A stretch of DNA of 62,386 bases, filler included. It is 10 parts of 10 records of this genome, joined end to end, with 100 filler letters (N's around TTAATTAATTAA, not from the genome) between each part and the next. Parts side by side here need not be neighbours in the genome. Positions count along the whole stretch, not along the records: positions 27,973 to 35,112 come from SRR31147125_116869; 9 more parts are not named here. One strand, 5' to 3'. Below, piece by piece: positions 6,542 through 56,049 of the stretch (position 1 is the first letter of the stretch; each line of letters begins with the position of its first letter). The notes beneath the pieces are model-generated. The model was not told where the DNA came from and did not search any database. It saw only the letters and a program-made list of their open reading frames with translations. The position numbers and the translations under genes are program-made.

Positions 6542-6641
6542 NNNNNNNNNNNNNNNNNNNNNNNNNNNNNNNNNNNNNNNNNNNNTTAATTAATTAANNN
6601 NNNNNNNNNNNNNNNNNNNNNNNNNNNNNNNNNNNNNNNNN
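6542..6641. other. Artificial contig linker; others at 12379-12478, 17513-17612, 22739-22838, 27873-27972, 35113-35212, 43326-43425, 49034-49133, 55948-56047
   Basis: Identical 100-nt N/TTAATTAATTAA/N blocks with stops in all six frames. Confidence 0.99.
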
Positions 6642-12342: not shown

Positions 12343-12479
12343 GTTAAACTCTCGCGCATTTAATTTCGTGGTTTTTTTNNNNNNNNNNNNNNNNNNNNNN
12401 NNNNNNNNNNNNNNNNNNNNNNTTAATTAATTAANNNNNNNNNNNNNNNNNNNNNNNNNNNNNNNNNNNNNNNNNNNNG

Positions 12480-17512: not shown

Positions 17513-17612
17513 NNNNNNNNNNNNNNNNNNNNNNNNNNNNNNNNNNNNNNNNNNNNTTAATTAATTAANNNNNNNNNNNNNNNNNNNNNNNNNNNNNNNN
17601 NNNNNNNNNNNN

Positions 17613-22738: not shown

Positions 22739-22839
22739 NNNNNNNNNNNNNNNNNNNNNNNNNNNNNNNNNNNNNNNNNNNNTTAATTAATTAANNNNNN
22801 NNNNNNNNNNNNNNNNNNNNNNNNNNNNNNNNNNNNNNG

Positions 22840-25775: not shown

Positions 25776-26765
25776 ATGTCAAAAGAACTTACCGCATCAA
25801 TCAATAACACCGCCGTCGGCTACTTCGCAAACGAGGTCAGCAAGTTCATGCGCACCATGCCGGATATCATGTCCGATTCGGAAGCCCGCCGGCTGACGAC
25901 TTCGCTGGTCATCAAGGCCAGCTCATCACTGGAAGAAGCTAAAATCCCCTGGAACAAAGTCGACCAGCCTAAGTTCGTCAATGACGCGATCCGCATCGTC
26001 ACCATGAGCCTGGACGCTGGAAACAATGAAGCCTATGCCATCCCGTACAACAACCCCAAGACAGGCAAGGTCGATCTTCAGTGCATGCCAAGCGCCAAGG
26101 GACTGAAGAAGATCGTCGAACTGTATTCGGTGAAGCCGATCAGGGACTTCCGTGAATTTGTCATCAAGGAAGGTGACATCTTCAAGGTGTCCCACACGCC
26201 GATCGGCGACTCCTGGGAGTATGAGGAAGATGTTTTCGGGTCCGGCAAAACTCGCGGCTATGTCACGATCGTCACTTATGAAGACGATATCTGCAATGTC
26301 ATGACTCACAGCAAGGCCGACATTGAAAAACGCCGGAAGGCCAGCAAAGCGCCAAACAGTCCTGCCTGGAAGAACTGGTATGACGAAATGGCTCTGGCAA
26401 AGGCCACCAGGCGCCACTGCGGCAAGATCACAACCAAGATGCCATCAGTCATCCAGGAAGCCTTTGACGCCGTTGACGATGCTGAGGAGGAACAGGCGAC
26501 CAAGGATGTCACACCGCCGACAATCGGCATTGACATGGGACATTCTGCCGGTGATCAGGATATCCAGGAAGTGCATGAGATCCAAGAGCCTATCCCTGAA
26601 AGCACACAAGATTATCCATCAGATAATACTGGCATAGCTCCTGCAGAAGCTCCAGTGACGGTCCATGCACATGAACCGAAAGCGAAGCCTGAGCAGCTGT
26701 CACTTGACAATGAAGCCGAGAGCGCACCGGTTCCGGATCCTACCGATACAAGCTGGATGGAGTGA
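25776..26765 (+). CDS. recT: RecT-family single-strand annealing protein
   Basis: EAYAIPY, KG+..+, EGD.F, SPAWKNWYDEMALAK..RR; acidic tail ending WME. Confidence 0.85.
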   Translation: MSKELTASINNTAVGYFANEVSKFMRTMPDIMSDSEARRLTTSLVIKASSSLEEAKIPWNKVDQPKFVNDAIRIVTMSLDAGNNEAYAIPYNNPKTGKVDLQCMPSAKGLKKIVELYSVKPIRDFREFVIKEGDIFKVSHTPIGDSWEYEEDVFGSGKTRGYVTIVTYEDDICNVMTHSKADIEKRRKASKAPNSPAWKNWYDEMALAKATRRHCGKITTKMPSVIQEAFDAVDDAEEEQATKDVTPPTIGIDMGHSAGDQDIQEVHEIQEPIPESTQDYPSDNTGIAPAEAPVTVHAHEPKAKPEQLSLDNEAESAPVPDPTDTSWME

Positions 26766-26770
26766 GGCAG

Positions 26771-27502
26771 ATGAAGATTCAAGTTTTTGGCTCGTCATCG
26801 GCAGGCAACTGCATCCGGGTTTTCAATGATCGTTTCCCCGGCGTCTATCTGGACGCCGGGGTCAACCCGGCTTTAATCCGTGAAGCCGGAGCTCCACTGG
26901 CCAATATGCCCGTCCTGGTCACGCATGAGCATGGCGATCATGCCAAGTATGCAAAAGTGCTTGCCGATAAATACAACTGCCCGATAATCGCGTCTCAGGG
27001 CACGCTGGAAGCGATTGACGTCGACCCAAGTCATCGTGTCTTGGTTGATCGGTTCATCTATGGAAATCTCAGCTTGTGGAGCGTGCAGAACTTCCCGGTC
27101 GTTCATTATCCGGCTGCTGATCCGAGGTGCTTTGTCGTTTCGATGGGACATGAGCGATTACTCTACATGGTCGACTGTGGACAGACTCCTGATCAGGACA
27201 TGATTCCTGAATGTGATGTCTATTTCGTCGAAGCAAACTACACGCCTGAAAGGCTCAAAAGCAATGACGAACAGTGGGCCGGTGTTCGCGGCAGGACATC
27301 ATCCGGCTTTGGCCATCTGAGCGTCGTGGATGCCTATGAGTTTCTAAAACCACGATTCAACCATGCGACAAAGATCATCCTGGGTCATGTCAGCAACTCG
27401 AATTTTGACATCGCCGAATATATGAAAATTGTTCCTCTGACGTTTCATGAGAAGGTCACTTTCGCCAGTCCTGGTCTTGTGATCGATACAGATCCATTTT
27501 AA
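26771..27502 (+). CDS. Metallo-beta-lactamase-fold hydrolase (phage exonuclease-like)
   Basis: GSSSAGN, LDAG, THEHGDH, EANY, GHLS, GHVS..N. Confidence 0.85.
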   Translation: MKIQVFGSSSAGNCIRVFNDRFPGVYLDAGVNPALIREAGAPLANMPVLVTHEHGDHAKYAKVLADKYNCPIIASQGTLEAIDVDPSHRVLVDRFIYGNLSLWSVQNFPVVHYPAADPRCFVVSMGHERLLYMVDCGQTPDQDMIPECDVYFVEANYTPERLKSNDEQWAGVRGRTSSGFGHLSVVDAYEFLKPRFNHATKIILGHVSNSNFDIAEYMKIVPLTFHEKVTFASPGLVIDTDPF

Positions 27503-27517
27503 AGGGAGGAGATATTT

Positions 27518-27872
27518 ATGGCAGCTGGTACATGGATAAAACTGCATAGCAATGTCTTCTCACACAAGAAAACGTTCATCCTTGCGGCCAATCTGAAGAT
27601 CAATGAAACCTATGCCGCGGCTCATATTATCAGGCTCTGGACATGGGCAATTGACAACACAAAAGATGGCTGTTTACAATTCGTTCACAGAAAGTTAATA
27701 GCAAAAGCAGCCGATTGGTCGAAGAATGCCGACACGTTTGTTGATGCATGTATTGATGCCGGATGGCTTGACGAAGATGAAGATGGGAACCTCTCAATCC
27801 ATGAGTGGGATGAATACACAGAAGCACTGGTACGACGGCGTGAGAAGGATGCCGCACGCAAGCGCGCAGAGA
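27518..27872 (+). CDS. Phage replication initiator, N-terminal part
   Basis: WIKLH..V..H.K, LW.WA, AGWLD..IHEWDE...R..DAARKR. Confidence 0.7.
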
Positions 27873-27972
27873 NNNNNNNNNNNNNNNNNNNNNNNNNNNN
27901 NNNNNNNNNNNNNNNNTTAATTAATTAANNNNNNNNNNNNNNNNNNNNNNNNNNNNNNNNNNNNNNNNNNNN

Positions 27973-30900
27973 CCTCATCATTCTTGCCACAACAATGCAC
28001 GTACGTACCTCCACAACTCTGGCAAAATTCGGTCGTTTTCGTGAGTCGGCGTCCCAGCATGCCTTTACAAGTTCATTAAGAGCTGCAGGACGATCCGATG
28101 CCAGCCGTGGGCGTAGTCCTTGCTGGACATCCAACAGGATCTGGTGTGTCGTTCTACTGGAAAAGGGAACCTCGAGAGGGGTTAGAGGAGGATGTGGCCC
28201 CGCACGCAACCCCCACTCAACACACCTCGCCTGTACACATTTCGTTCAAGATAATCCCAAAGGAATAAACGTCCACCTGTACCCTTCTGTGAAATTCCAA
28301 GTGGGACAAGCAAGGAGTATCGTACCGCTTCGGAGTAACCTTCTCGACCCACTTCGGGGGCCATGTATTGCGGGGAACCAACAGTCGAACGAATTGTGCT
28401 GGCCGTTTTGAGTCGTGCCATCCCAAAGTCGATGATCTACAGTGTCTGTCACACGTGTCCGTGAGAACGGGAGTGCTATGCACCTTTGTGTGTCCGTCAC
28501 GGTCGAGAAGAATGTTAGAAGGTTTGAGATCACGATGAAGAATGGGCGAACGACTAGAGTGAAGATAGAGCATGGCACGTGCAATCTCGACAGCCATCCG
28601 AATGACCTCTCGATCCGAGAATCGTTTCTTGTGTTTGTGGAGTGCGTCGTGCAGGCTACCGCACGGGAGGTACTCCATCACCAAGCAAGCTTGAATCTCT
28701 CGAACATCCGACTCTTCATCCAAGGATTCCTGAAGACATCCTCCAAAGAGCATGACTGTCCAAGCAGGTGTCAACGTGGTCAACACACACACACACACAC
28801 ACCAATGTTGGGATGGCGCAGGCGATGCAACAAATCTGCTTCACGACAAAACGATGCAATACCATCTTCCGTGAGAGCCTCATCGTAGATTTCCTTGACG
28901 GCCACTACGAGGCCGTGCCAGGTTGCCAAATAGACATTTCCAAAGGACCCCTTTCCAATACACCGTCGCTTTCTTCCAAAGTCCAGATCATCATATCTGG
29001 GAGGAGAACGTGTTTGCAAACAGCGAGCAGGTAGCAACCTGCCCACGCGCACGATAACAACCACTCGCACGTTGAGGATCCCGTAAACGCCGAGATTGTG
29101 GCCGACAGGTTGGACAAGGAACATACCAACGAGGAGACAGATGTGGGGTCTGCACCACCTTGCGACCCACACGATGAGTTGGAATCAGGGATGCCGCCAG
29201 AACTATGAACGCCAAGCTCTTCCAAACATCCAACCAAACGCCGGTCCACCTCATCAAACTGCCGAGAATCTGGACACCCAAGTGCCGAGGACACTTGTTG
29301 GGCATCGACAAGACCATGAATAACGTCTTGCGCCGATAAGAGGCATGTCACAAGCCGTTGAAGGAGATCGGATGAGCGACGATAGGCAGGAAGGGATCGA
29401 ACCTCGCGAACTACAAGATTGATACGTTGCGCAAGCAGCTGATGCAAAATGGAGATTAGAATTGATGTATCACACGAACAGAGTGTCCTCTCGTACCTCA
29501 CACCATTGCCGCTTCGTCTGGACCCCCTCCATTTCCGCTTTAATGGTGTTGGCCAGGGATACCACATCATGTACAGCAGATACAGAGTTACTGCCGCCAC
29601 TACCACTGCTGTCGCTGGTACCGAACGGACTGGAAGGAGCGGTCACCTCAAAGACAGTCCGTCTCATCTCCCCTAACCCTGGAAAACCATCAGGGGAATG
29701 GTCTGTGTGTGGGATGTCAAACAGCACCACCACACCATCATTGAGGGCGACCGTACCCAACAATCGACGACTGTCATCTTTTTCCACCACTTCGTCTGTC
29801 CGGCGACGGGGTAGGGGAGATACAGATACGCGTCCGACAGAATTGTGTTGCGTTTGAGGCTCAGGATGAGAAGAGATCTTAGGAGGAATGTAGTTTGGAG
29901 CTGTGAAGAGAACATCACCATCCATGTGTCCAGGAAGAACACCAAATGCCGGTGTTTGATGGGGTGCTGTCAAGGTAACACGACTAGGACAGAGATGTAA
30001 GAGAAAGTATCGTGTGCGAGACATCACTACCTTGTCAGAAATGTGAACAAATCCATGGACGTGAAGAATCCGTCTCCATCCACATCTGCGTGGCCCATAA
30101 GGCCAAGCAGCAGGAGACCCGAAAACACAGAATGTTTTCCCCAGCCTCCGTCGCACACACGCTGGTCGGCCCCTCCTGCTGTGATCACGATGCGAGCAGT
30201 TCGGAGAAGAAGTTGCTCGACCCATCTACACAACGAACTGTCATACAACATACAGGAGAGAAAGGACCGAGACACAAGACCTGTGGGCGTGACGCTGAAT
30301 CGGCAAGACGGTTTCGCGTTCATTCACACCACCCCCTGGAATATGTGCAATATTAGGAGGGCCGAACACGCCGAACACGCCGAACACTACGCGTACCATT
30401 CGTCTCTGTCCTTTTCCGGCGTCGTCATTATCAGCCCGCAACATGGAAATCACGTTGTCGCCTCTCAAGGCTGTACATGCGCCTCCAAAACAGGAATCAA
30501 ACACATAGCTGTTGTTTGGTGATGCACATGCTGGTGGGAGTGGATGGGACGGACGTACAGAATGTGTCGACTCTTCAAATAGTCCGTCACAGCCCGCAGT
30601 TCATCCATCGAAATCACATCAGACAGTTTTCCTGCACGTGCATCTACGGGGACAATGTACCTGGGGCACGTAGTGAGACCACCATACCGTGTTCGTGTAC
30701 ATTGACACACCCTTTTTGCGCTCCGGAGGCTGACACTTCCGTCAGTCCGTGTCCGGCAAAGAAGAAGAGAAAGAGGGCATCCTCTTCAACCTGTTGATGT
30801 GTCAGGACAGGGATGTAATGATACGTGCAGCACAACAAACATGTGGGGCGATTTCATCAATGAACATGCTTCGAATGTTCTCGCGCGTGGCATCCTTGTC

Positions 30901-33900
30901 TCGTAACACAAAACACTCAAATGCATGTTGTTCACGAAGAATCTGATTGGATTCGTGAATTCATACCTCGAAAGGAAAGAAAGAGAGGAATCGGGTGGAG
31001 CGTACCTGAGCTACAGCCTCGGCATCGCCACTCGCATGAGACAGGGGCAGAAACTGTGCATAGGCTCCAATCCCAATACAAAGAGCGACACGACGCTTGT
31101 ACAGGGTACGATGTGGAGTGCGTGGGGAGGTTCTGGGGTATTATGCTATAATCAAACAAACCAGTCCGTAGCAGGCCACACAACGAACCTGCGTTCCGGT
31201 TCGCGACGCAGGGGTGGAGGGACCTCTAACACTTCATCGGGAGAGGGCCATTGTTGAGATGGAATTCTCTTGTGTTTGGGAGTCGTGGCGGGAGGAAGAG
31301 CCAGTGTCTCTGTGTCAAGCATGGAAATGCGAATGACCTACCTCACACGGGGGAATGTAAGCGATGTCTCTCCCACAACTCGAGACACAAACCACTCCTC
31401 CATGAGGAAGTCCTGTCATGTGTCCTCCTCGAAACATATCCTTGATGTAGCAGAACGCTCCTACAGAACTCTCAATGTACAAAAGCACTGGAGGATGATA
31501 GATCAGTGAGACAGCTGTCATTCTTCTGTCTTGCTTGCCTTGTTCGGGTTGATGTTCAGCCTCAAAAGAACACGACACACAGTTCTCACGCAATTCACGC
31601 AAAAGGAGAGAGCCATCCAAGAGACCATTCAGAACGAAAGACCATGTGTTGGCTGTATTCCCTCTTCAGAAGGACTACGGACGTCCGAATTCAAGAACAG
31701 GGCATACCTTCTGTCTTATTGGGATATACACGCCCCCCTGTGTCCGATGCTAGTTTCACGAGGCATTGTTCCGTATGGGAAATCTTCTCGGAGGAGCCTT
31801 TCATTTTCACGTTGTAGCACGCATCAACATCGCGCAGCTCCAATCGAGGATCTACAACCGAACCCTCAGCAAGGAGCGAGGATAACCAGAGTTCCACCTA
31901 CGCCGTGTGAGACATACACACACGCGCAAACACAAACACACCTTTCGAACAATATCAAGAGTAAAGGGCTCGCTCTCAGTGACTGCAAGAGACCACTTCA
32001 GTCGACGACTCGAGAGAACTCGCCTCGCGACAACAATATCCCCAATGAATTCACTTCTACTCCCCTTTGCGTTTGGGATTTGTGTTGGCTGCCCGGTTTC
32101 CACACCCACCTCAGAGTCGGAATCTGGCTTCGTCCCACCTTGCGTCCCCATCGCCTCATCTTGTGCAAGATATACTCATACCTTGATACGAACCAGTGAG
32201 GAGAAAGGAAGAAAGGAAGAAAGGAAAGAAAGAAAAGAAAGAAACGCACACGTCTCGAACGGTAATAATGACCGAGTCACGCGCCGCTTCTCCCTGCCAG
32301 ACAGTGATTCAGGATCTTCTCCACACGAACGTACAAATGTACCTGTAATCCACACAAAAGGTAGAACGTAAAAATACCATGGCGCAACTCATTAGGAGCA
32401 TAGGATGTCTGGGATGCCGTGCCTGCCACACGTGTGTTATACTTCCACACATCACCCAGGGATACGTACTTGCAGAGAGAACAGCAAATCCTTCTCCTAG
32501 CTCGTATCTAAGGTATAGAGAGTGAGGTGAACGCCCGGAAATGCTGCGTTGATGAAAGACGAACACATTGAAAAGGTAATCGTCGTCTTGTTCCACAGCG
32601 CGTCTCCACACTCCCTCTGCTGTACGTTGTTCCACACCTCCTTGGCAGCAATCCAAGACAAGAACCTGAAGAACCTTGCGTTACACAAACACGAGAACCG
32701 AACAACAACGAATGTGCGCACCACGCGACGGGCTCGACTCCCTTTTAGAGTAGATTCAACCTGCAACGAGAACGTGTAAGGTGAGGCACGACCATCCACA
32801 CATCCTACCTCACTGAGAGGGAGGGCGTTACGCATCGTGGGAGTTTGTGCAAGTAATACCGATTCGAAATTTGCTAGGCCCAATTCTGTATCGCCCATGA
32901 CTAGGCAAGGGAGAAAGAAAAAGAAAAATGTCACGGAGAAAGTAAAGGATCCCTTTCACGCACTGAGACACCGTTCGCCATTCCAACGGATGCCATGGCA
33001 CGAAAAGTACACAAAAAGAACATCGTCCGGCTGAACCACAAGGCACGTTCGTTACACAGGGTACCGATCTATTCCTCAACGCACCGTTGCCTCGTTGCAG
33101 AATTGGTCCAAGGCATTTCGCACCTGTAGTGTGTGGGTTCCTTTTGTCCCTCCTCTATGCTAGTGGATCACGCACATCTATCAGAGACACAATAGGTAGA
33201 GAAGAGGACATCAGAGGAAGTGTTCCCCCGTCGTGAAGCTGGGCAACGTCTGAATACCCGAGCAGACGTAGTGTTCGTGCCAGGGCATGAACGTCATTGT
33301 TGCCTACATATTCAAATCCTGTCAGCAAATCCAGAGGTAAAAGCAATGGCAGAGGCATACAAAACGTCAGCTCAGGGAAATTGAAGTAGTGATTGATTCC
33401 CACCAAGAGTGCGCGGTGTCTCATGGGAGTTGGGGATGCGTGCGGATGATGGACAGGGTGTCCTATCGATTGCGATCCCACAAGATCGGCCAGCACCACA
33501 CGCCCCAGACTCTCCCCCACCGAGGAGGCCCATACCGTCCTGTGCCATGTCATGTCATCATATCACCACTGTGTGTCTTAGTTAAACTACCACAACCACG
33601 CACCGAGATCCATCATTCGAGCCAGCGTAACGATGCAACAGGTAATCGACCACATTCCCCACCGATACACTGAGGAAGGTCCACTGTGGGATCTCGCCCT
33701 ATTCCTCTGAACGCACCTCTCGCGATCCTCTGCCCCTGCGCTACCTGTCATAGCCTCCACGATATCCAAGGCCAGAGATCCCCTTGTAGAGGCTACAACG
33801 ACCTTGAAAGACACGTAGATTCTCAACACACGAAACGAAACAAAGCGAAAACGACACCACTGCACCTACCGTTCCGAGCAAGTAGGGTAAATGGGTCACA

Positions 33901-34572
33901 ATGTCTTCCGCACAATCTGCACGCACTACAACACAAATCAGAGCAAGATGTCTTCCCACAGAGCCGCATACCACAAGCAAAAGCCACAAAACAACATGAA
34001 GCACGACAAGGAGTAACACACGAGAGAATCGACTCGATCGAGACACCAGGGCCTGCTTTCACTACGGGGAGTGTTCCTAATGTCTGGGATTAACAAACAA
34101 CACAAGGGAGGACGACTCCACCCCCACCCACCCTCCTGTAACACGCCCATAGGTGCAGCTACCACTGCCACCACGACATCTCCCTCAGAAGCGTTCCGAC
34201 AGACACTACGAAGAGTCTCCAGTGCCTTGTCCAACTGCACTTCCGACTCGTGTTGTTGCTCCAATGTGTCGGCGTCGTTTCCCGCGCCTCCGTCTTGTGA
34301 CACTCCCCACTGTCGTACACGTGATGGAGGAAATCTCCGAGCAGGCTGGCGAGTGGGGGAGGGAGGTCCATTCGTACGACCTTGTAGCCCAACATCGTAC
34401 TCAGAATCGTAGAGGCTTCTTGAGCGTCATGACGCAGATCCTAATGTACAAATGGAATTAGGGTTTGAAGGAAAGGTCGTCTCCGTCTCCACACCACGTT
34501 ATCGCCTTTTGCTACGGAAGAAAGAAGAACGGCGACTCGAGACGACGCATTCTTCGTATCGTGTGTAATCAT
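27973..34572 (-). CDS. Multi-exon eukaryotic gene, 3'-partial: degenerate C14-like(?) / C14 / C14 / MLKL-like four-helix bundle / TKL-type kinase
   Basis: Manual splicing of about 50-nt GT-AG introns gives YFSCHG (32992-33009) with LDCC (32645-32656), FFAGHG (30746-30763) with DSCFGG (30481-30498), a helical domain (~29200-29575), and kinase motifs GKGSFG, VAVK, HRDLKPSN, DFG, YMAPE. The start site and some junctions are uncertain. Confidence 0.65.
28783..28801. repeat. (CA)n microsatellite inside a kinase intron
   Basis: acacacac run following the HPNI exon on the minus strand. Confidence 0.8.
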
Positions 34573-34734
34573 TGTGTCGCGTGTCAACAGCACACAGCAA
34601 CGCAACACGGGGAAGGGTACTGGAGGAAGGATGTTCCTGGGTTCCAAGGATGTTGGGGGTATGTTCCTATTTCCATCATTATTTTTATGATCGACTGTTT
34701 CGTGTTTCCCCCTTTTCCATTCCACCCCCTCGAG

Positions 34735-35112
34735 ATGTTGCGTATCGCCTTAACACTGGTCCTAGGGATAGGGATTCTTGGAGTTGTTCTGGGTGTACCT
34801 CGCAGTCCACAACCGGCGTTTGTTGCTGCTCCTTCCCCGCTTGGTGACCTTCGTGTTCACCTACAAGTTTTCTCGGGAACACCGGACCCGTCATGGATCC
34901 TTCATACAACTGTAGCGATGCATGCCCTAGAATTGTTGTCCCACGAGGCTCCGGTTTCAGGAGGGGTACGAAAAACGGAAAACCCCTCCACGTGTCTCTC
35001 CCTTACCCTATCCACTCTCCAGGCGGATCTTACCCCACCGGAATATGTTGCATTGGGGTACCGTGGGTTCGCCCTGCAGGTTTCCGACGGGATGGGAGGA
35101 TGGAGGTGAGGA
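34735..35112 (+). CDS. Secreted eukaryotic hypothetical protein, spliced, 3'-partial
   Basis: Signal peptide MLRIALTLVLGIGILGVVLG; VFSGTPDPSW and LGYRGF motifs; probable gtacga...ccag intron ~34967-35022. Confidence 0.55.
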
Positions 35113-35212
35113 NNNNNNNNNNNNNNNNNNNNNNNNNNNNNNNNNNNNNNNNNNNNTTAATTAATTAANNNNNNNNNNNNNNNNNNNNNNNNNNNNNNNN
35201 NNNNNNNNNNNN

Positions 35213-43193: not shown

Positions 43194-43437
43194 ACTTTCA
43201 AAGATGTACTACAACCCGTCTGGTTTGTCAGCAATTTCTTATTCTTCATGGATGGCAGGGAGTAGACGTCCGATTATTGACAATATTTATTATTAAAGGA
43301 ATAAGTCCGAAATAACTTACCCAAANNNNNNNNNNNNNNNNNNNNNNNNNNNNNNNNNNNNNNNNNNNNTTAATTAATTAANNNNNNNNNNNNNNNNNNN
43401 NNNNNNNNNNNNNNNNNNNNNNNNNCGGAAAAAAATT

Positions 43438-48992: not shown

Positions 48993-49166
48993 AATCTCGA
49001 AGAACGTCGCAAACGTTAGAATCGTTTGCCTTTNNNNNNNNNNNNNNNNNNNNNNNNNNNNNNNNNNNNNNNNNNNNTTAATTAATTAANNNNNNNNNNN
49101 NNNNNNNNNNNNNNNNNNNNNNNNNNNNNNNNNTAAAAACATCTCAAGCCTGTTTTCGGCGCCTAG

Positions 49167-50090
49167 TCAGAGTTCAATCTCCCGCTCACCGAGTTTCGGC
49201 TTTTTGGCTTTAATCACTTTTATGACATGCTGAAAGGCGGGACTTTTCTTGTCCCCATCGTCCACAAAGTAGCTGTGCCCCTTCAGGTCAAATTTATTGT
49301 TGAATGAATCACAGTTGACCGCATACACGTTATTGGCGACCTTTGCCATGTCCTCCGGCCCCGTATGCCCGATACGGCGGCTGAACACGGCGTTTTTCAC
49401 GTTCGCCACCTTGCTGGCCGGCATCGCGAAATCATCGTTCGCATAGTAGCAGACTACCCGTTGGGCCGCTTTGGTGATATAAATCCCTTCCGCGGATTTT
49501 TCCAGGGCTTCGTTGGGGATGTCGGACGCCATCAGGAATATGTTTTTGAACAGATAGGGAACACCGCCGCCGCCGTACCTGCAAGCCCAGTAAGAAAGGC
49601 CTTTCATCAGCACTCTTGCGCCCATGGAGTGGGCCATAAGGTGCATTCTTTTCTTGCATGGTTCCTTTTGCTTTTCCTGCCAGGCCGTCAATTTTGAAAT
49701 GGCGCGGCTGAAAAAGATCCCGGAAAACTCCGCGGACTCCTGGTCATCCCAGTAGTCCTGAATCACACCAAAGTCGTCGTCGCACGGCCAGATAATGGGA
49801 ATCACCGTGACACGGCCAAGCCCGCCGTCTTTAAGCTGGTTCTGCATGGCGTCGGCTCTGGGAAAGATATGCTCATGGGGTTGATTGTTGAACCCATGAA
49901 TATAAAATAGGATTTCTTTGTCAGCGGAAGCCATCAGGTGCTGCATGAAAGCCTGGCTGCCGACTTCCTCGAACATCTGGCCATCCAACCGGCGGCAATA
50001 TCTCAGGCTTTGCGACAGCTCGTTGGAATCCTTGAATTGTAATTTGTTGTTCGCTTTCTCAATGACGGTTTTGTTCGTAATGAAATACAT
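49167..50090 (-). CDS. Alpha/beta hydrolase (DUF900-like)
   Basis: FYIHGFN, AHSMG nucleophile elbow, GHSY. Confidence 0.85.
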   Translation of the reverse strand: MYFITNKTVIEKANNKLQFKDSNELSQSLRYCRRLDGQMFEEVGSQAFMQHLMASADKEILFYIHGFNNQPHEHIFPRADAMQNQLKDGGLGRVTVIPIIWPCDDDFGVIQDYWDDQESAEFSGIFFSRAISKLTAWQEKQKEPCKKRMHLMAHSMGARVLMKGLSYWACRYGGGGVPYLFKNIFLMASDIPNEALEKSAEGIYITKAAQRVVCYYANDDFAMPASKVANVKNAVFSRRIGHTGPEDMAKVANNVYAVNCDSFNNKFDLKGHSYFVDDGDKKSPAFQHVIKVIKAKKPKLGEREIEL

Positions 50091-50440
50091 TTTAACCTCC
50101 CTGTTAATTACGCTTTGCTAAATACATATCCTAAAACAGGTTTTTGTCAATTTGCATTTTACGAGGAGCCTGCCTGACTTAGGAATGAATCTGAGGTCAT
50201 TAGTGACGCAGACGGAAATTTTATGGGCTGAGATGATGTTTGGGAACAAAGTAGGGGTTTCCTTCAGGAAAGGGGCTTCGGGGCGATTAACAAACACAGA
50301 AATGGAAAAAGTAGAAATTCCTTTCACTGATAGTGGAAAAGTTTTAGTTTTGCTAATCTTTTTTCTGGATTCCTGGTCGCAGTTCTGGCAGACTGAAAAT
50401 CTTCCAAATTTATGCTGAAATGATTTTGAAGGGATTTGCA

Positions 50441-50716
50441 ATGACAAGACTTGAAATTATCACTCAATTCCTCTCCAAAATGGTTGAACAGCCAGAAATC
50501 GAGCTTCTTAACTGGGCTCAAGAGAACATCGATCCGGGGGTCATGCTGAAACTCAAGGAGGAGGTCACCAGCGAGGAAATCTCCGCCCTGGTCGCCGAGC
50601 TTGAAAAAGGCCCCGAGGCTTTCCTTAGCATGCTCCTGAGGCAGATCTCCTGGGAAAACGCTCCGCTGAAATCGACCCGTATCAATTCCGCGTCGGTCGA
50701 GGCCGCAATTCTCTGA
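50441..50716 (+). CDS. Hypothetical protein
   Basis: Coherent ORF of about 91 aa (MTRLEII...). Confidence 0.5.
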   Translation: MTRLEIITQFLSKMVEQPEIELLNWAQENIDPGVMLKLKEEVTSEEISALVAELEKGPEAFLSMLLRQISWENAPLKSTRINSASVEAAIL

Positions 50717-51084
50717 GAACTTCTCCCGCGCACGTCATGTGCTTCATTCCTCCCGCCAACAATGTTGAGTTTGGGATACTGTATCCTTGCGTTACGTTCC
50801 TTTTGGGCTCGTCCTGACTTTATCCAATCCGCCTGCGTCTTTCGCCAGCGTCGGAAAACGGCAAATCAAAAAGAAAATTTCTGATCGTTTCTCTCGTGGT
50901 CCATTCTCTTGAAATGGCCCTCCAAGTCTGATAGTCTCCACACAAATATGGTCTTGGGTTTTTTAACAGCGGAATTACAAAATTTATCACCACCGGTACA
51001 CCCGGATGGAACTGCATTGAAAGGCGTGATTATAGTGGTGCCGCACAGGGACAGGATGGGTGAAACAAGAGAAAGGAAAGAGGC

Positions 51085-51291
51085 ATGAGGGGTCCTAAAT
51101 TTTACGCAGTAATCGAAGATAGAATGGACGGGTTCGGGTTTGGTGAATATCTGCATCGCCACAAGGCTTTGACATATCAAGATGCGAAAAAATATCTGGA
51201 TGAGCATCCGAATTGCCACCACGTTGACTGGTTTGATGGCGAAGAGTGGCACTGTCAGGTTACAGAGGAAATGGAAGTCAAAGAAAAATAA
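51085..51291 (+). CDS. Small hypothetical protein
   Basis: 68 aa with a purine-rich RBS. Confidence 0.5.
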   Translation: MRGPKFYAVIEDRMDGFGFGEYLHRHKALTYQDAKKYLDEHPNCHHVDWFDGEEWHCQVTEEMEVKEK

Positions 51292-51558
51292 ATAATTAAT
51301 GTAAGACCTTTGGAAGCACTATCTAACCAATTGAAAAGGCTTAAAAAAATAATTACGCGGAATTTACCGCGACTTCCAGGAACATAAAAAGGGTCGGTCT
51401 TAAAAGGACCGGCTTTTTTTGGGGGATGAGATGGGGTTTTCAGGGGGAAGGAATTGGAAAAACCCTTGGTTTGATTTTCATTTCGGTCAGCGGGAGTCAA
51501 AAATTCTTTTTTTATCGGATGTTTGACAGTAGCAATAAGTGTTGGTATTATTGCCAAC

Positions 51559-51840
51559 ATGGATGCCGAGCTGATGCTCAAAGAACATCTGGTTGTGGGC
51601 GAAGATGCTTTCGTTGAATTGGTTGTTTGGCGGCTATTCTCGTCTGTTGTGGGTAGCAAACACTTTTTCAAGTATCGGCTTGTACTGGTGGTGAAGGGGA
51701 ACTGTGTTCTGCGCTATGACAATGAGCAGGGCAAGGGCGACCACAAGCATTGTGGTACAGAAGAGATCCCCTACAATTTCACCACGCCCGAAAAGCTTAT
51801 CGACGATTTTTGGGGAGACGTTGAAGACTGGAGGTATTGA
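51559..51840 (+). CDS. DUF6516/TumE-like putative toxin
   Basis: H.FKYRL.......VLRYDNE.GKGDHKH...E.PY.F.....LI.DF..DV. Confidence 0.8.
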   Translation: MDAELMLKEHLVVGEDAFVELVVWRLFSSVVGSKHFFKYRLVLVVKGNCVLRYDNEQGKGDHKHCGTEEIPYNFTTPEKLIDDFWGDVEDWRY

Positions 51841-51841
51841 C

Positions 51842-52183
51842 ATGCGTACCGTAACATTGGTGGTATCTTCTCGTGAAAAAAGCAAGCAGAGGTTTGCAAA
51901 AGCCTTTGCAGGAAAGGCTCAAGGAAATTTCATCAGTTTTGAGTCTCCCGCGCTTCTGTTCAAGGTCCTTTCAGGGAAGCGCTGGGAACTGCTGAAGATT
52001 ATGACCGGAGCAGGTCCAATTGCTATTCGAGAGGCGGCCCGGCGGAGCGGAAGGGATGTCAAATCGGTGCATATGGACGTACACGCTTTGCTGAATGCAG
52101 GCATCCTGGAAAAGACAGAAAAAGGGCTCATTGAGTTTCCGTACGATGCCGTTCATGTCGATTTCACACTGAAGGCCGCCTGA
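51842..52183 (+). CDS. HTH antitoxin-like partner (HVO_A0114/TumA-like)
   Basis: ISFES..LL.KVL..KRWELL, IRE.ARR.GRDVK.VH.DV..L; coupled to the upstream gene. Confidence 0.75.
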   Translation: MRTVTLVVSSREKSKQRFAKAFAGKAQGNFISFESPALLFKVLSGKRWELLKIMTGAGPIAIREAARRSGRDVKSVHMDVHALLNAGILEKTEKGLIEFPYDAVHVDFTLKAA

Positions 52184-52220
52184 TTCGTAATAAGTAGATT
52201 GGAGCAGTGTCAAGTGCTTA

Positions 52221-52251
52221 GCCGGTCCCGATAGGGGCCGGTTTTTGTTTT
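52221..52251 (+). terminator. Rho-independent terminator
   Basis: gccggtccc-gata-ggggccggt followed by a T-tract. Confidence 0.75.
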
Positions 52252-52263
52252 GGGATGGGGCAG

Positions 52264-52375
52264 GTTTGAGAGGGGGAAGGGAGGTGCTAAAATTCAAAAT
52301 CATTATTCACCGGTTCTCGCACCGGCAGGCGAGGACCTTTTGTTTCGGCAGCGCATGAGTCGCATGGAAAACATC
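52264..52375. repeat. Direct repeat, copy 1 (~110 bp)
   Basis: gtttgag.gggggaaggg...caaaatcatta...cggttctcgcaccggcaggcgagg.ccttttgttt.ggcagcgcatgagtcgcatggaaa. Confidence 0.9.
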
Positions 52376-52384
52376 TTTTATCAG

Positions 52385-52684
52385 CTAGGGAAGCTTCAGC
52401 AGACGCTCGCTGCGCCAGATTCGCACCACCCGCACCTGGTCGCTGTCCCTGCGGTAGACAATACGAAAGGGCGGATGAATAAGTTCGCGCAGATGTGGCT
52501 GGCCGAACTCCGGGACGATGCGTCCCCGGTCAGGCAGGCGGCCGAGTTTCTCTATGGCAGTGAGAAGGTCGGCAACCAGTTTCATGCCAACCTCGGGGAC
52601 GTTATTTTCGCGGTAATGGTCGCGGATCGCCTCCAGATCACAGAGCGCCGATTCAGCCAGGGAGATGGAATAACGTCTGGTCAT
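52385..52684 (-). CDS. RelE/ParE-family toxin
   Basis: A..DLEAI..., P..GRIVPEF....LRELI..PFRIVYR. Confidence 0.9.
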   Translation of the reverse strand: MTRRYSISLAESALCDLEAIRDHYRENNVPEVGMKLVADLLTAIEKLGRLPDRGRIVPEFGQPHLRELIHPPFRIVYRRDSDQVRVVRIWRSERLLKLP

Positions 52685-52687
52685 GAG

Positions 52688-52957
52688 TTATTTCAGCCCG
52701 AGGCGTTCTTTGGCAGCGGCAAAACTGAGCTCACGTCCCCCTTCGAGATCGCTCAGGCCGGCAACCACTGCCCGCATGAAAGAAACTTCCTCCTCGGTTT
52801 TTTCGAAATCTTCCAGAGCTTGAATCACAGCCACCCCACGGCCGCGGCTGGTTAGAAGCGCCGGGCGGTGCACTTCGGTGACTTGCCTGACGATTTTCCC
52901 CGGGTTGATTTTCATCTCGGTCAAGGGGATGACGTCTTCAGAAAATTTTGTCCTCAT
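52688..52957 (-). CDS. Phd/YefM-family antitoxin
   Basis: EDVIPLTE.K.NPG.IV.......RP.LLTSRGRGVAV; ggagg RBS. Confidence 0.9.
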   Translation of the reverse strand: MRTKFSEDVIPLTEMKINPGKIVRQVTEVHRPALLTSRGRGVAVIQALEDFEKTEEEVSFMRAVVAGLSDLEGGRELSFAAAKERLGLK

Positions 52958-52995
52958 TTGTGCCTCCTTGTTAACCAAGTGTCCCGTCCGGTTGG

Positions 52996-53006
52996 TCCTG
53001 TCAGGA
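52996..53006. promoter_or_regulatory. Palindromic operator candidate for the Phd/RelE operon
   Basis: tcctg-t-cagga about 40 nt upstream of the antitoxin start. Confidence 0.4.
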
Positions 53007-53138
53007 AATTTTGAGAAGTTATTGGTGCTGGCAAGGCGTCCTCAATGTAGGCCCAGCAGAGCGATTGGCGCAACGCAGGCAGCGCAAAAAAGAGCCGGAA
53101 TTTGAAGGCAAGATTAGCTGGATGTGACATTAAAATAA

Positions 53139-53178
53139 CACCATTTAAAAGACCTGTCAAATGGTCTTTTAAATGGTG
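53139..53178. repeat. Perfect 16-bp inverted repeat
   Basis: caccatttaaaagacc-N8-ggtcttttaaatggtg. Confidence 0.85.
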
Positions 53179-53214
53179 CTCTTAATTGGCTGAAGGGTTA
53201 GTTTGGATTTTGAA

Positions 53215-53326
53215 GTTTGAGTGGGGGAAGGGGTGGAGCTGAACCCCAAAATCATTAATTAGCGGTTCTCGCACCGGCAGGCGAGGCCCTTTTGTTTTGG
53301 CAGCGCATGAGTCGCATGGAAACATT
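53215..53326. repeat. Direct repeat, copy 2 (~110 bp)
   Basis: Near-identical to copy 1 over the ~60-bp core. Confidence 0.9.
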
Positions 53327-53435
53327 TTGATGCAAAAGGGGTTGTTCAGCTCAGGCTGGATTTTTTGTTTCTTTGCGAGGGGAAAAATACAGGGATTTTT
53401 GTATGGTATATTAAGTAAATGACACAGGGGGAACC

Positions 53436-54125
53436 GTGAGTAAGCCCTTTTTCCTCATATCCATCGGCATCGTCCTGCTGTCAGGCTTGGCATTGATCAG
53501 TCCGCCGTTTGCGGCGGCTCAATCTGAAACCGTGATCGAGCTGCCGAAGCCGCGGTGGCAGGGCGAGGTCTCGGTAGAGCAGGCGTTGAAATCGAGGCGG
53601 TCCGTCAGGAGCTTTGAGACGCAGGCGCTGAGCCTGGATGACGTGTCGCAGCTGTTGTGGGCGGCGCAGGGTCTTTCGGCCGGCCGTTTTCGCACGGCAC
53701 CCTCGGCGGGTGCGCTTTACCCTCTGGAGGTGCGTGCAGCGGTCTGGAATGTAGAGGGGTTGGAACCCGGTGTCTACCGCTACGATCCCGCCACGCACAG
53801 TTTGAGAGAAGTACGCAAGGGCGATGTCCGCAAATCCCTCACCAGGGCGGCCTGGTGGCAAAAGTGGGTGGGAAGAGGCGCCATCGCGTTGGTTTTTTCG
53901 GCCGTGTATGAAAGAACCACCGGGAAATACAGCGAGCGTGGGATTCGCTACGTTCACATGGAGGCTGGTCACGCCGCGCAGAACGTCTATCTGCAAGCCG
54001 AAGCTTTGGGGCTGGGTACGGTAATCGTGGGGGCTTTCATGGACAGCTGGGTCAGAAGGGTGCTGCGTATGCCGGACGAGGAACAGCCATTGAGCATCAT
54101 GCCGGTTGGGAAGCCTTCAAGGTAG
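53436..54125 (+). CDS. SagB/ThcOx-type nitroreductase-family protein, exported
   Basis: [34 protein letters not shown]. Confidence 0.9.
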
Positions 54126-54179
54126 GGAAGTACCGGTTCACCCTTGGCAGCATTTGATTGAAAATTTCAGAAGGCATCC

Positions 54180-54926
54180 ATGAACATACTGGGAATCGAT
54201 ATTGGTGGTAGCGGCATCAAAGGCGCACCGGTCAACCTCAAAACAGGGGAATTACTGGCCCCCCGGCAACGTATTCCTACCCCGCAACCTTCGAAACCAG
54301 AAGCTGTAGCGGAAGTGGTCGGAGAGATCGCTAGGCAATTCCAATGGAGCGGATCGATCGGTGTTGGTTTCCCGGCCGTAATCCGGCATGGTGTAGTTCG
54401 TACAGCTGCCAATGTGCATGAAAGCTGGATCAACACTGATGCTGCCAAATTGTTCAGTAAAACGACGGGCTGCCCGGTGACCGTAGTTAATGATGCCGAC
54501 GCAGCCGGGATGGCTGAGATGGCTTTTGGTGCCGGCCTGGGCCGTAACGGTGTTGTCCTGGTTGTGACCATTGGAACCGGCCTGGGAACCGCCGTCTTCA
54601 CTGATGGGCATCTGTTGCCCAATACCGAATTCGGGCATATCGAAATCGATTGCAAAGATGCCGAGCTATTGGCTTCGGATGCCATCCGTAAAGAGCGCAA
54701 GCTCTCCTGGAAGAAGTGGTCCGGCCGTTTGGATACCTACCTGCTGCGCCTGGAGGCCCTTATCTGGCCCGATTTGATCATTTTAGGTGGTGGCGTCAGC
54801 AAAAAACACGAGAAATTCATCCCCCGCCTGACGGTTCAGGCCGAGGTTGTTCCCGCTGAAACGTTGAATGAAGCTGGAATCATCGGAGCGGCGCTGACTG
54901 CGGCACAGGAGGAGCAAAAGGCGTGA
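54180..54926 (+). CDS. ppgK: ROK-family polyphosphate glucokinase
   Basis: [45 protein letters not shown]. Confidence 0.85.
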
Positions 54927-55027
54927 AGTTTGGCAAACGGAGATACGAGGTTTGCGGGCCACGAAAAAAGCCGACAAATCTTTTTGTCAAGCCTGCCGCA
55001 CCTTACTTCGCCTGAATGTCATAAAAG

Positions 55028-55061
55028 AAAACCCGCCCAACAGGCAGGTTTTTTTGTTTTT
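55028..55061 (+). terminator. Terminator-like hairpin
   Basis: aaaacccgcc-caaca-ggcaggtttt followed by a T-tract. Confidence 0.6.
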
Positions 55062-55193
55062 GGATGATGTGGGAATTTGATGGAAAGGGGATTTTCCCAT
55101 GGAATGAATTCAATATTTTTAATATGGTAGGGAGGATTGCAAATTTCAACCAGGTTTCGGCGCTTTGGGGTATTCCCAGTCAAGGAGTTTGAC

Positions 55194-55619
55194 ATGAAGG
55201 ATATTCGCTGGAAACAACGCTTCAGTAATTACATGCAAGCACTCAAAACGCTTCACAAGGCTGTCGAGTTGTCAAAGCAGCGGGAATTATCGGAATTGGA
55301 ACAACAGGGTCTGATTCAGGGATTTGAATTCACTCATGAACTCGCCTGGAATGTATTAAAGGATTACCTTGAAGAACAGGGCTTTGTCGGCATCATCGGT
55401 TCCAAAAACGCAACCCGGGAAGCCTTTAAAAATGGCTTGATTGGTGAGGGCGAAGCCTGGATGGATATGATCAAGGCCCGGAATCTGGCATCGCATACCT
55501 ACAACACAAATCTCGCGGCGGATATTGTGAAGGACATATTGACGCGGTTTTATCCCGCCTTTACGGATATGGAAGAGTATTTTGCCATGTTGCGGGACCG
55601 GGAGGATGGCGAAGGGTGA
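55194..55619 (+). CDS. HEPN-type nucleotidyltransferase substrate-binding protein (HI0074-like toxin)
   Basis: DIRWKQRF.N, GLIQ.FEFTHELAW, RNLASH (Rx4H). Confidence 0.9.
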   Translation: MKDIRWKQRFSNYMQALKTLHKAVELSKQRELSELEQQGLIQGFEFTHELAWNVLKDYLEEQGFVGIIGSKNATREAFKNGLIGEGEAWMDMIKARNLASHTYNTNLAADIVKDILTRFYPAFTDMEEYFAMLRDREDGEG

Positions 55620-55933
55620 ATTACGGGTTGTCTGCCTCTAATATTGGCAAAATTTGCAGTGTCTTCTCCCGGTTTCCTTCCGTGAAGAAAGCCGTGCTTT
55701 ACGGCTCGCGGGCCAAGGGGAATTTCAAGCCTGGCTCAGATATCGATCTGACGCTTCTGGGGGACAGCCTGACCCAGAAGGAACTTGGCACAATCGCCGA
55801 TGAGCTGGACGAACTTCTTTTGCCATATACCATCGACCTTTCCATTTTCCATCATATAGATAGTGTCGATTTGCGAGAGCATATTGAACGTGTCGGGCAG
55901 GTGCTCTACCAAAGGGGTGACGAGAGGGACTAA
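55616..55933 (+). CDS. Minimal nucleotidyltransferase (MNT antitoxin)
   Basis: LYGSRAKG....GSDIDL; overlaps the HEPN stop. Confidence 0.9.
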   Translation: MNYGLSASNIGKICSVFSRFPSVKKAVLYGSRAKGNFKPGSDIDLTLLGDSLTQKELGTIADELDELLLPYTIDLSIFHHIDSVDLREHIERVGQVLYQRGDERD

Positions 55934-56049
55934 AGGCCTTTTTCAGCNNNNNNNNNNNNNNNNNNNNNNNNNNNNNNNNNNNNNNNNNNNNTTAATTAAT
56001 TAANNNNNNNNNNNNNNNNNNNNNNNNNNNNNNNNNNNNNNNNNNNNCT

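Follow-up and report, generated by a model that had tools for sequence, protein, structure and literature searches.

Caspase-family proteases and helical bundles of the MLKL/HeLo type carry out programmed cell death, and animals have them as separate proteins; vertebrate MLKL is a pseudokinase. In plants, wheat Pm13 is described, in the part of the source available, as an MLKL_NTD-kinase protein, and the accessible part of a study on fungi reports HeLo/HELL-kinase proteins as well as gasdermins that have S8 or CHAT caspase-like proteases as neighbouring genes (PMC12881547). Metacaspase-like proteases and orthocaspases of the Peptidase C14 family are known from bacteria and phytoplankton, according to the available sections of two further papers (PMC3734836, PMC3501461). 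Here we analyzed a stretch of 62,386 bases (the window), in which ten separate contigs rather than one locus are joined, and whose sixth contig (positions 27973–35112; 7140 bp, 52% G+C) carries an intron-rich gene on the minus strand. The protein predicted from its sequence unites tandem C14 domains with a helical module and a TKL kinase expected to be active, an architecture that we did not find described in the literature searched, even when any MLKL-like reading of the helices is left aside. In agreement with an earlier note on this DNA, whose author knew of no such protein, a chain of C14, MLKL-type bundle and kinase was not found in that literature either, within its available text and with InterPro, EukProt and supplementary files outside the scope of the search.

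Our best explanation, a tentative one that we rate somewhat short of an even chance, is that a single gene encodes two C14 domains followed by a bundle of MLKL/HeLo/RPW8 type and a catalytically active kinase of the TKL group, forming a self-contained switch. Its most specific form, an all-in-one death switch of a unicellular or little-sampled eukaryote with two active metacaspase-type proteases, an MLKL-class bundle and an active RIPK/TKL-like kinase, appears rather unlikely. Read from the N-terminus, the chain would comprise C14-A, a spacer, C14-B, a basic disordered linker, four helices with a brace-like helix, and the kinase, laid out as follows:

32110..33424, minus strand: C14 domain A (metacaspase-like), exons 1–10, with the ATG at 33424
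33424-33361, 33303-33191, 33123-33085, 33030-32970, 32900-32809, minus strand: exons 1–5, C14-A
32760-32725, 32674-32470, 32422-32343, 32293-32252, 32159-32110, minus strand: exons 6–10, C14-A
31180..32056, minus strand: A-to-B spacer of about 250 residues, exons 11–14, of no known family
32056-31942, 31897-31708, 31652-31342, 31307-31180, minus strand: exons 11–14, spacer
29941..31098, minus strand: C14 domain B (metacaspase-like), exons 15–20 and the start of exon 21
31132-31006, 30942-30841, 30790-30711, 30660-30559, minus strand: exons 15–18, C14-B
30508-30397, 30215-30031 and from 29983 on, minus strand: exons 19–21, C14-B, exon 21 continuing past the domain
29581..29940, minus strand: linker, about 120 residues long and contained in exon 21, rich in Pro, Ser and Gly, with the basic clusters PRRRT, SRR and MRR
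29082..29580, minus strand: helical module, with helix 1 at 29580-29497 (end of exon 21) and an intron of 58 nucleotides (nt) at 29496-29439
29438 to about 29215, minus strand: helices 2–4, exon 22
Between helix 4 and the fifth helix, minus strand: low-complexity stretch of roughly 25 residues, exon 22
29138-29082, minus strand: fifth, brace-like helix, exon 22, just before the kinase
28009..28996, minus strand: Ser/Thr protein kinase domain of the TKL type, exons 23–27
28996-28803, 28755-28484, 28436-28326, 28276-28226, 28170-28009, minus strand: exons 23–27, kinase
27973..28008, minus strand: start of a 3' intron whose donor, GTACGT, lies at 28008 and which the end of the contig truncates; the N spacer 27873-27972 follows

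The gene model was built by hand under guidance from homology, with junctions picked to restore a colinear domain sequence. It comprises 27 exons and 1293 codons without a stop, separated by 26 introns that mostly start with GTA or GTG; 24 of these measure 44–92 nt, the remaining two 34 nt and 181 nt. An open frame obtained by removal of GT-AG introns is weak evidence when taken alone, because unrestricted threading spans all 7140 bases: used as a gene finder, naive GT-AG threading kept a frame open over this entire length with 22 arbitrary "introns" and was rejected, as was a codon-trained ab initio dynamic programme, which strayed into wrong frames. The model was therefore judged against dinucleotide shuffles threaded under fixed rules (donor GTA/GTG, acceptor CAG/TAG, intron 40–100 nt). 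None of 50 shuffles equalled the threading from C14-B to the kinase, and the A-to-B spacer, which threads with five introns, was equalled by 2 of 200 shuffles under the strict rules, under which 163 could not be threaded, and by 5 of 200 under lax settings. With CAG/TAG acceptors only, no threading of the real C14-A stretch was possible; once AAG/GAG acceptors were admitted as well, its threading was equalled by none of 100 shuffles. A leave-one-out codon-usage test, trained on the 736 codons of the homology-supported exons, chose the model frame in all 20 of these exons and likewise in exons 11, 12, 13, 21 and 22. No alternative splice choice exceeded model 1 in C14-profile score. Together, these controls bear out the continuous minus-strand frame that the earlier note had read after removing introns of about 50 nt. 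Of the span it had given for the gene, the ATG at 33424 stands; the other limit, 27973, is merely the first base after an N spacer, and the gene runs on, leaving the contig inside an intron directly past the end of the kinase domain, with its 3' end off the contig.

Both protease domains are carried by evidence at the level of single open reading frames (ORFs). The motifs quoted in the earlier note are all present on the minus strand and in place, in the order RALLVGINHY, YFSCHG, LDCC, HGIFTFYLL and QIP for domain A and RVALCIGIGAY, FFAGHG, DSCFGG, HSVFS and QTPAFG for domain B. For comparison we built our own C14 profile, a 268-position hidden Markov model from 36 cyanobacterial domains located by Pfam PF00656; the domains were drawn from five cyanobacterial genomes and plasmid pNPUN01, which has two C14 genes, and no C14 gene was found in plasmid NC_003276 nor in four of five further plasmids. 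When this profile was run, with all filters off, against every six-frame ORF of 12 codons or more in the window (2435 in total), the top seven all lay in this gene, in two colinear series between 33562 and 30647 of the minus strand, the best unrelated ORF giving an E value of 2.1. These matches were computed on unspliced ORFs and are therefore independent of the splice choices. Domain A pieces fell at profile positions 8–33, 79–98, 142–171 and 195–222 (E 1.4e-3, 1.1e-3, 0.38 and 0.021, respectively). For domain B, ORF 31140–30964 matched positions 10–46 (E 6.9e-6), ORF 30960–30805 positions 40–73 (E 0.068) and ORF 30853–30647 positions 76–99 (E 1.1e-3), with weaker colinear pieces at 136–157 and 186–224. 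Once spliced, domain A (residues 1–245) scored 94.1 bits over positions 10–238 of 268 and domain B (residues 521–759) 103.3 bits over positions 10–256 of 268; these spliced scores are partly circular, the C14 junctions having been chosen in knowledge of the family consensus, which to that extent weakens the case, and the ORF-level matches are free of this effect.

The catalytic residues sought were the His of xSGHG and the Cys of DxCxSG. FSCHG and LDCCQGG of domain A, and FAGHG and FDSCFGG of domain B, align to SGHG and DSCHSG of the profile and supply the His and the Cys, respectively. The near whole-domain profile match and the His/Cys dyad place both domains in Peptidase C14, so that the two caspase-like domains of the earlier note are retained, and both are predicted to be catalytically competent. 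Pfam Peptidase_C14 gave 11.1 bits (positions 3–39) and 11.7 bits (66–86) on two unspliced ORF pieces of domain A, below its cut-off of 21.4. The C14-B exon reached a best E of 0.24 against PDB sequences, which was EF-hand-like noise on a DVDGDG motif, and a word-indexed homology search with the same exon confirmed none of 56 candidates. The two domains share 23% identity (E 1.5e-5), indicating that they do not stem from a recent duplication.

The kinase displays all of its motifs (GKGSFG, VAVK, HRDLKPSN, DFG and APE), with HRDLKPSN marking a Ser/Thr-type catalytic loop. Pfam PK_Tyr_Ser-Thr/Pkinase (PF07714/PF00069) matched all four kinase ORF pieces with 33, 72–75, 24 and 26 bits, covering profile positions 5–70, 72–144, 139–176 and 202–256. 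The spliced domain aligned with a database kinase (P0014) over residues 2–268 of 274 at 35% identity (E 2e-44), free of gaps at all four kinase exon junctions. The nearest PDB entries to exon 24, kinases of the TKL and TK groups, were EGFR, TNNI3K, CTR1, MLK4, JAK2 and RIPK2 (E 4.6e-13 to 1e-9). A word-indexed search with this exon yielded 23 database kinases, with neither PF00656 nor PF22215 among the precomputed Pfam domains of any of them; the top matches, P0004–P0010, were multi-kinase proteins and were set aside as uninformative. The domain ends at RPNFARVVE, followed by the GTACGT donor. In line with the intact kinase noticed before, the domain is intact and TKL-like, and its motifs predict an active enzyme. 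Of the domain families that the earlier note had named, PK_Tyr_Ser-Thr is present, Peptidase_C14 stays below the Pfam threshold on the unspliced pieces, and Pfam MLKL_N gave no match to the pieces of the helical module.

The connection between the proteases and the kinase runs through exon 21 (29983–29497), which holds the end of C14-B (QTPAFG), the linker and helix 1 in a single frame. As had been claimed, the end of domain B and the first helix lie in one uninterrupted ORF: the stop-to-stop ORF 29473–30225 (251 codons, stop at 29470–29472) contains QTPAFG, the linker and the first predicted helix. In the model, only 29983–29497 of this ORF is coding; over its first 81 codons the ORF shares sequence with exon 20, which is read in another frame. 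The exon 21 donor GTACGA and the exon 22 acceptor TTTTGCATCAG are of the same type as in the homology-supported introns. Exons 22 (29438–29071) and 23 (28996–28803) contain no Met, so that a separate helical-kinase gene would have no start. A single frame leading from C14-B through the linker and the helical region to the kinase is therefore very likely. The AlphaFold model of the linker is mostly unstructured (predicted local distance difference test score, pLDDT, 37), and a word-indexed homology search with the linker exon confirmed none of 1939 candidates. Upstream, exons 11–13 of the spacer are separated by introns of typical form and are joined to the QIP motif by an intron with three in-frame acceptors. 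Pfam assigned no family to the spacer pieces, and among PDB sequences the sole match to exon 13 was a designed repeat protein, with no stretch past threshold on its own. A single chain that also includes C14-A is probable. The one-chain claim thus holds from C14-B to the kinase, where one frame, the shuffles and the codon test agree, whereas the join to C14-A is probable only, owing to a weak junction.

The nature of the helical module is the point on which the proposed switch turns. AlphaFold, run with no alignment, gave a clear secondary structure, with helices at residues 2–21, 25–49, 58–74 and 101–119 of exon 22 and at residues 134–157 of exon 21, corresponding to a pattern of four helices of 17–25 residues (about 105 residues) plus a brace-like helix. 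The named clusters that come closest in the ESM Atlas contain MLKL_N, RPW8, MCAfunc or PigL_N (scores 0.79–0.86). The best score was 0.84 for the whole of exon 22 and 0.86 for its helical 78 residues, with nine of ten and ten of ten best named matches, respectively, falling in one clan; scores below 0.9 are leads only, and a third of shuffled proteins reach 0.8 together with a one-clan result. Modelled as two chains, the helix-1 piece packed onto helices 2–4 with an ipSAE of 0.38, while none of three controls exceeded 0.00; the runs agreed in at least 90% of contacts, and the partner pLDDT was at least 65. Of 78 solved complexes, 51 reached the packing mark, as did 2 of 108 mismatched pairs; at values of 0.60 or below, only 5 of the 78 complexes did so, together with all 4 of the passing mismatches. 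The support from packing is accordingly weak. Assignment of the module to the MLKL/HeLo class of bundles is close to an even call, or slightly under.

A number of results weigh against that assignment and against the switch built on it. The models of the module are of low confidence (pLDDT 50 for exon 22 and 37 for exon 21). The bundle families looked for in Pfam were PF22215, PF14479, PF17111 and PF05659; the intron splits the domain and the pieces were scanned unspliced, and no family at all appeared at E<=10 for exon 22 (122 residues), the helical 78 residues or the helix-1 piece (48 residues). Against PDB sequences, the helical exon reached a best E of 0.15, an unrelated entry. The best Foldseek match had an E of 1.8; among generic bundles, the Rx coiled coil came in at rank 35 and the MLKL executioner domain no higher than rank 46 (E 4.6). 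The best VIA-align Z of 8.1 was to generic helical proteins and lies below the level meaningful for helical bundles; BAR, OST4, NINJ2, ApoE and designed bundles were matched equally well. Searching 1.84 billion representative proteins with phmmer revealed no relatives of the helical exon; the three matches returned were tandem-repeat proteins aligned in 7–13 stretches and were discarded as artefacts. In metagenome contigs of the Joint Genome Institute (JGI), none of 592 pattern matches to the exon was confirmed by tblastn. Furthermore, the module is internal and not N-terminal, and the kinase is active, unlike the MLKL pseudokinase. Consequently, the MLKL-like four-helix bundle of the earlier note was not borne out by any Pfam, PDB or fold match, and the Atlas scores, the helix pattern and the packing are left as weak leads towards it.

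Should the module nevertheless be a membrane-acting bundle of the MLKL/HeLo/RPW8 class, it would presumably be kept inactive inside the chain. Along the lines suggested in the earlier note, the C14 domains of the protein might release it by cutting after Arg or Lys within the linker, either in cis or, once the chains have clustered, in trans, and the kinase might also, or instead, activate it by phosphorylating itself. In that case the protein would act as a self-contained switch in regulated cell death or immunity, in which gasdermin-like proteolytic release and MLKL-like phosphorylation control would meet on one polypeptide.

The same chain may be read more simply as a protease-kinase signalling protein without any membrane-damaging part, in which a TKL kinase carries the helices as a plain regulatory or dimerising domain. 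This we hold to be almost as likely as the switch, likewise at less than an even chance. The empty Pfam, PDB sequence, Foldseek and VIA-align comparisons, none of which returned MLKL_N, HeLo or RPW8, are what it would lead one to expect; short helical bundles are common, as the generic VIA-align matches illustrate, and a kinase predicted to be catalytically intact would be functional without an executioner module. It accounts less well for the outcome of both Atlas searches, which point to a single clan of death-related bundles rather than to other families of helical proteins, for the order of bundle, short helix and kinase, which is that of the MLKL type, and for the presence in the same chain of two proteases of a death-related family, which fits a role in death or immunity.

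A different division of the locus concerns its length and not its helices. The weakest junction of the model lies between the two protease domains (31341–31133), where either a 34-nt intron (31341–31308) or a 58-nt alternative (31395–31338) is needed and where the short exon 14, like exon 10, does not win in the model frame in the codon-usage test, both results counting against the A-to-B join. At this place the stop of the exon-13 frame (31317–31315) overlaps an ATG (31322–31320) that opens the exon-14 frame on the minus strand, the sole formal site at which two genes could meet. C14-A with the spacer would then be one gene and C14-B with the helical module and the kinase another, with the boundary near 31320; the low identity of A and B would agree with this. 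Such an overlap of stop and ATG, on the other hand, would leave an ordinary eukaryotic gene no space for a promoter or an untranslated region, the spacer threads with five canonical introns that beat 198 of 200 shuffles, and exons 11–13, which connect to QIP, show a coding signal in the frames of the model; two genes are distinctly unlikely. A decaying pseudogene or a chimeric metagenomic assembly, with no such chain made as a protein, would be consistent with a single low-coverage contig, with a public run whose contigs are at most 375 nt long at depth 1–4, and with a homopolymer indel behind 30331. Yet all 20 homology-supported exons keep frame and catalytic residues, 1293 codons contain no stop, the indel falls in a modelled intron and the run contigs are at least 99% identical to the stretch, so that this last reading is very improbable.

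The surroundings of the gene are best read contig by contig. The contigs of the window, with G+C contents of 0.41 to 0.55, are joined by 44 N, TTAATTAATTAA and another 44 N at the following places:

6542-6641, 12379-12478, 17513-17612, 22739-22838, 27873-27972: spacers
35113-35212, 43326-43425, 49034-49133, 55948-56047: further spacers

Neighbouring contigs are uninformative for this gene, because the stretch consists of unrelated contigs joined by these spacers. Most of them contain long unbroken ORFs of 470–1785 codons and look prokaryote- or phage-like; the longest ORF on contig 27973–35112 has 251 codons. This contig stems from a eukaryote with short introns, which upholds one half of the protist origin suggested before; the label protist itself is unproven. 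Contig 49134–55947, with a longest ORF of 316 codons, may be a second eukaryotic fragment. On the adjacent contig, 26714–27928 (plus strand) holds ORFs of 262 and 141 codons that by eye suggest a metallo-beta-lactamase-fold protein and a phage replication-type protein, unrelated to the gene. At the far end of the contig under study, a 215-codon ORF (34462–35109, plus strand) with the hydrophobic stretch LRIALTLVLGIGILGVVLG runs off the contig and may represent a neighbouring gene transcribed divergently, which would put the 5' end of the protease-kinase gene within about 33424–34600. A plasmid megablast with contig 27973–35112 gave no match.

A single public DNA run matches the contig, with 0.36 of the words, and no RNA run does. 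The contigs of this run are short, and 9 of 30 bins of the stretch are uncovered; given their length of at most 375 nt, they provide no independent check of splicing or long-range continuity. In one run contig (depth about 2), an extra C lengthens a C5 homopolymer at 30331 (plus strand), within the modelled 181-nt intron 30396–30216; its position mildly favours the intron model over an alternative long exon. The same intron contains three copies of a 9-nt unit, GTGTTCGGC, at 30361–30387 (minus strand). A (GT)9 repeat at 28785–28802 (minus strand), which opens a kinase intron, and a CT-rich tract of about 50 nt at 32200–32251 (minus strand), before exon 10, were both skipped as repeats when the public-run contigs were placed.

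That the gene is seen on one metagenomic contig, with no homologous locus found, limits how much weight the finding can bear. Within this limit, the gene shares with the MLKL-like proteins of plants and fungi, as described in the accessible parts of the sources, the order of a helical module (here of about 105 residues), a short helix and a kinase-fold domain. It differs in that its module, scanned as unspliced pieces, has no match to the MLKL_N, HeLo or RPW8 profiles and stands behind about 880 residues, two proteases among them. It is not MLKL proper either: the kinase keeps its motifs and the bundle begins only at about residue 880. The nearest solved structures to kinase exon 24 are those of the TKL kinases TNNI3K, CTR1, MLK4 and RIPK2, along with JAK2 and EGFR. 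Like metacaspase-like proteases, both C14 domains match the cyanobacterial C14 profile over nearly its full length and keep the dyad; in contrast to them, the gene has C14 domains in tandem, fused to a helical module and a kinase, a kinase fusion not being mentioned in the available sections of PMC3734836 or PMC3501461.

A natural fusion on a single chain would offer a compact model for how proteolysis and phosphorylation may license a membrane-damaging module, and it would add a data point on the shuffling of these parts outside animals. In its logic it would resemble, by analogy, the fungal gasdermin pairs described in the accessible part of PMC12881547: a caspase-family protease would stand beside a putative membrane-damaging executioner, which it could release by cleavage. 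Compared with those pairs, the gene described here appears to fuse the parts in one polypeptide, with a candidate helical bundle in place of a gasdermin and with a kinase added.

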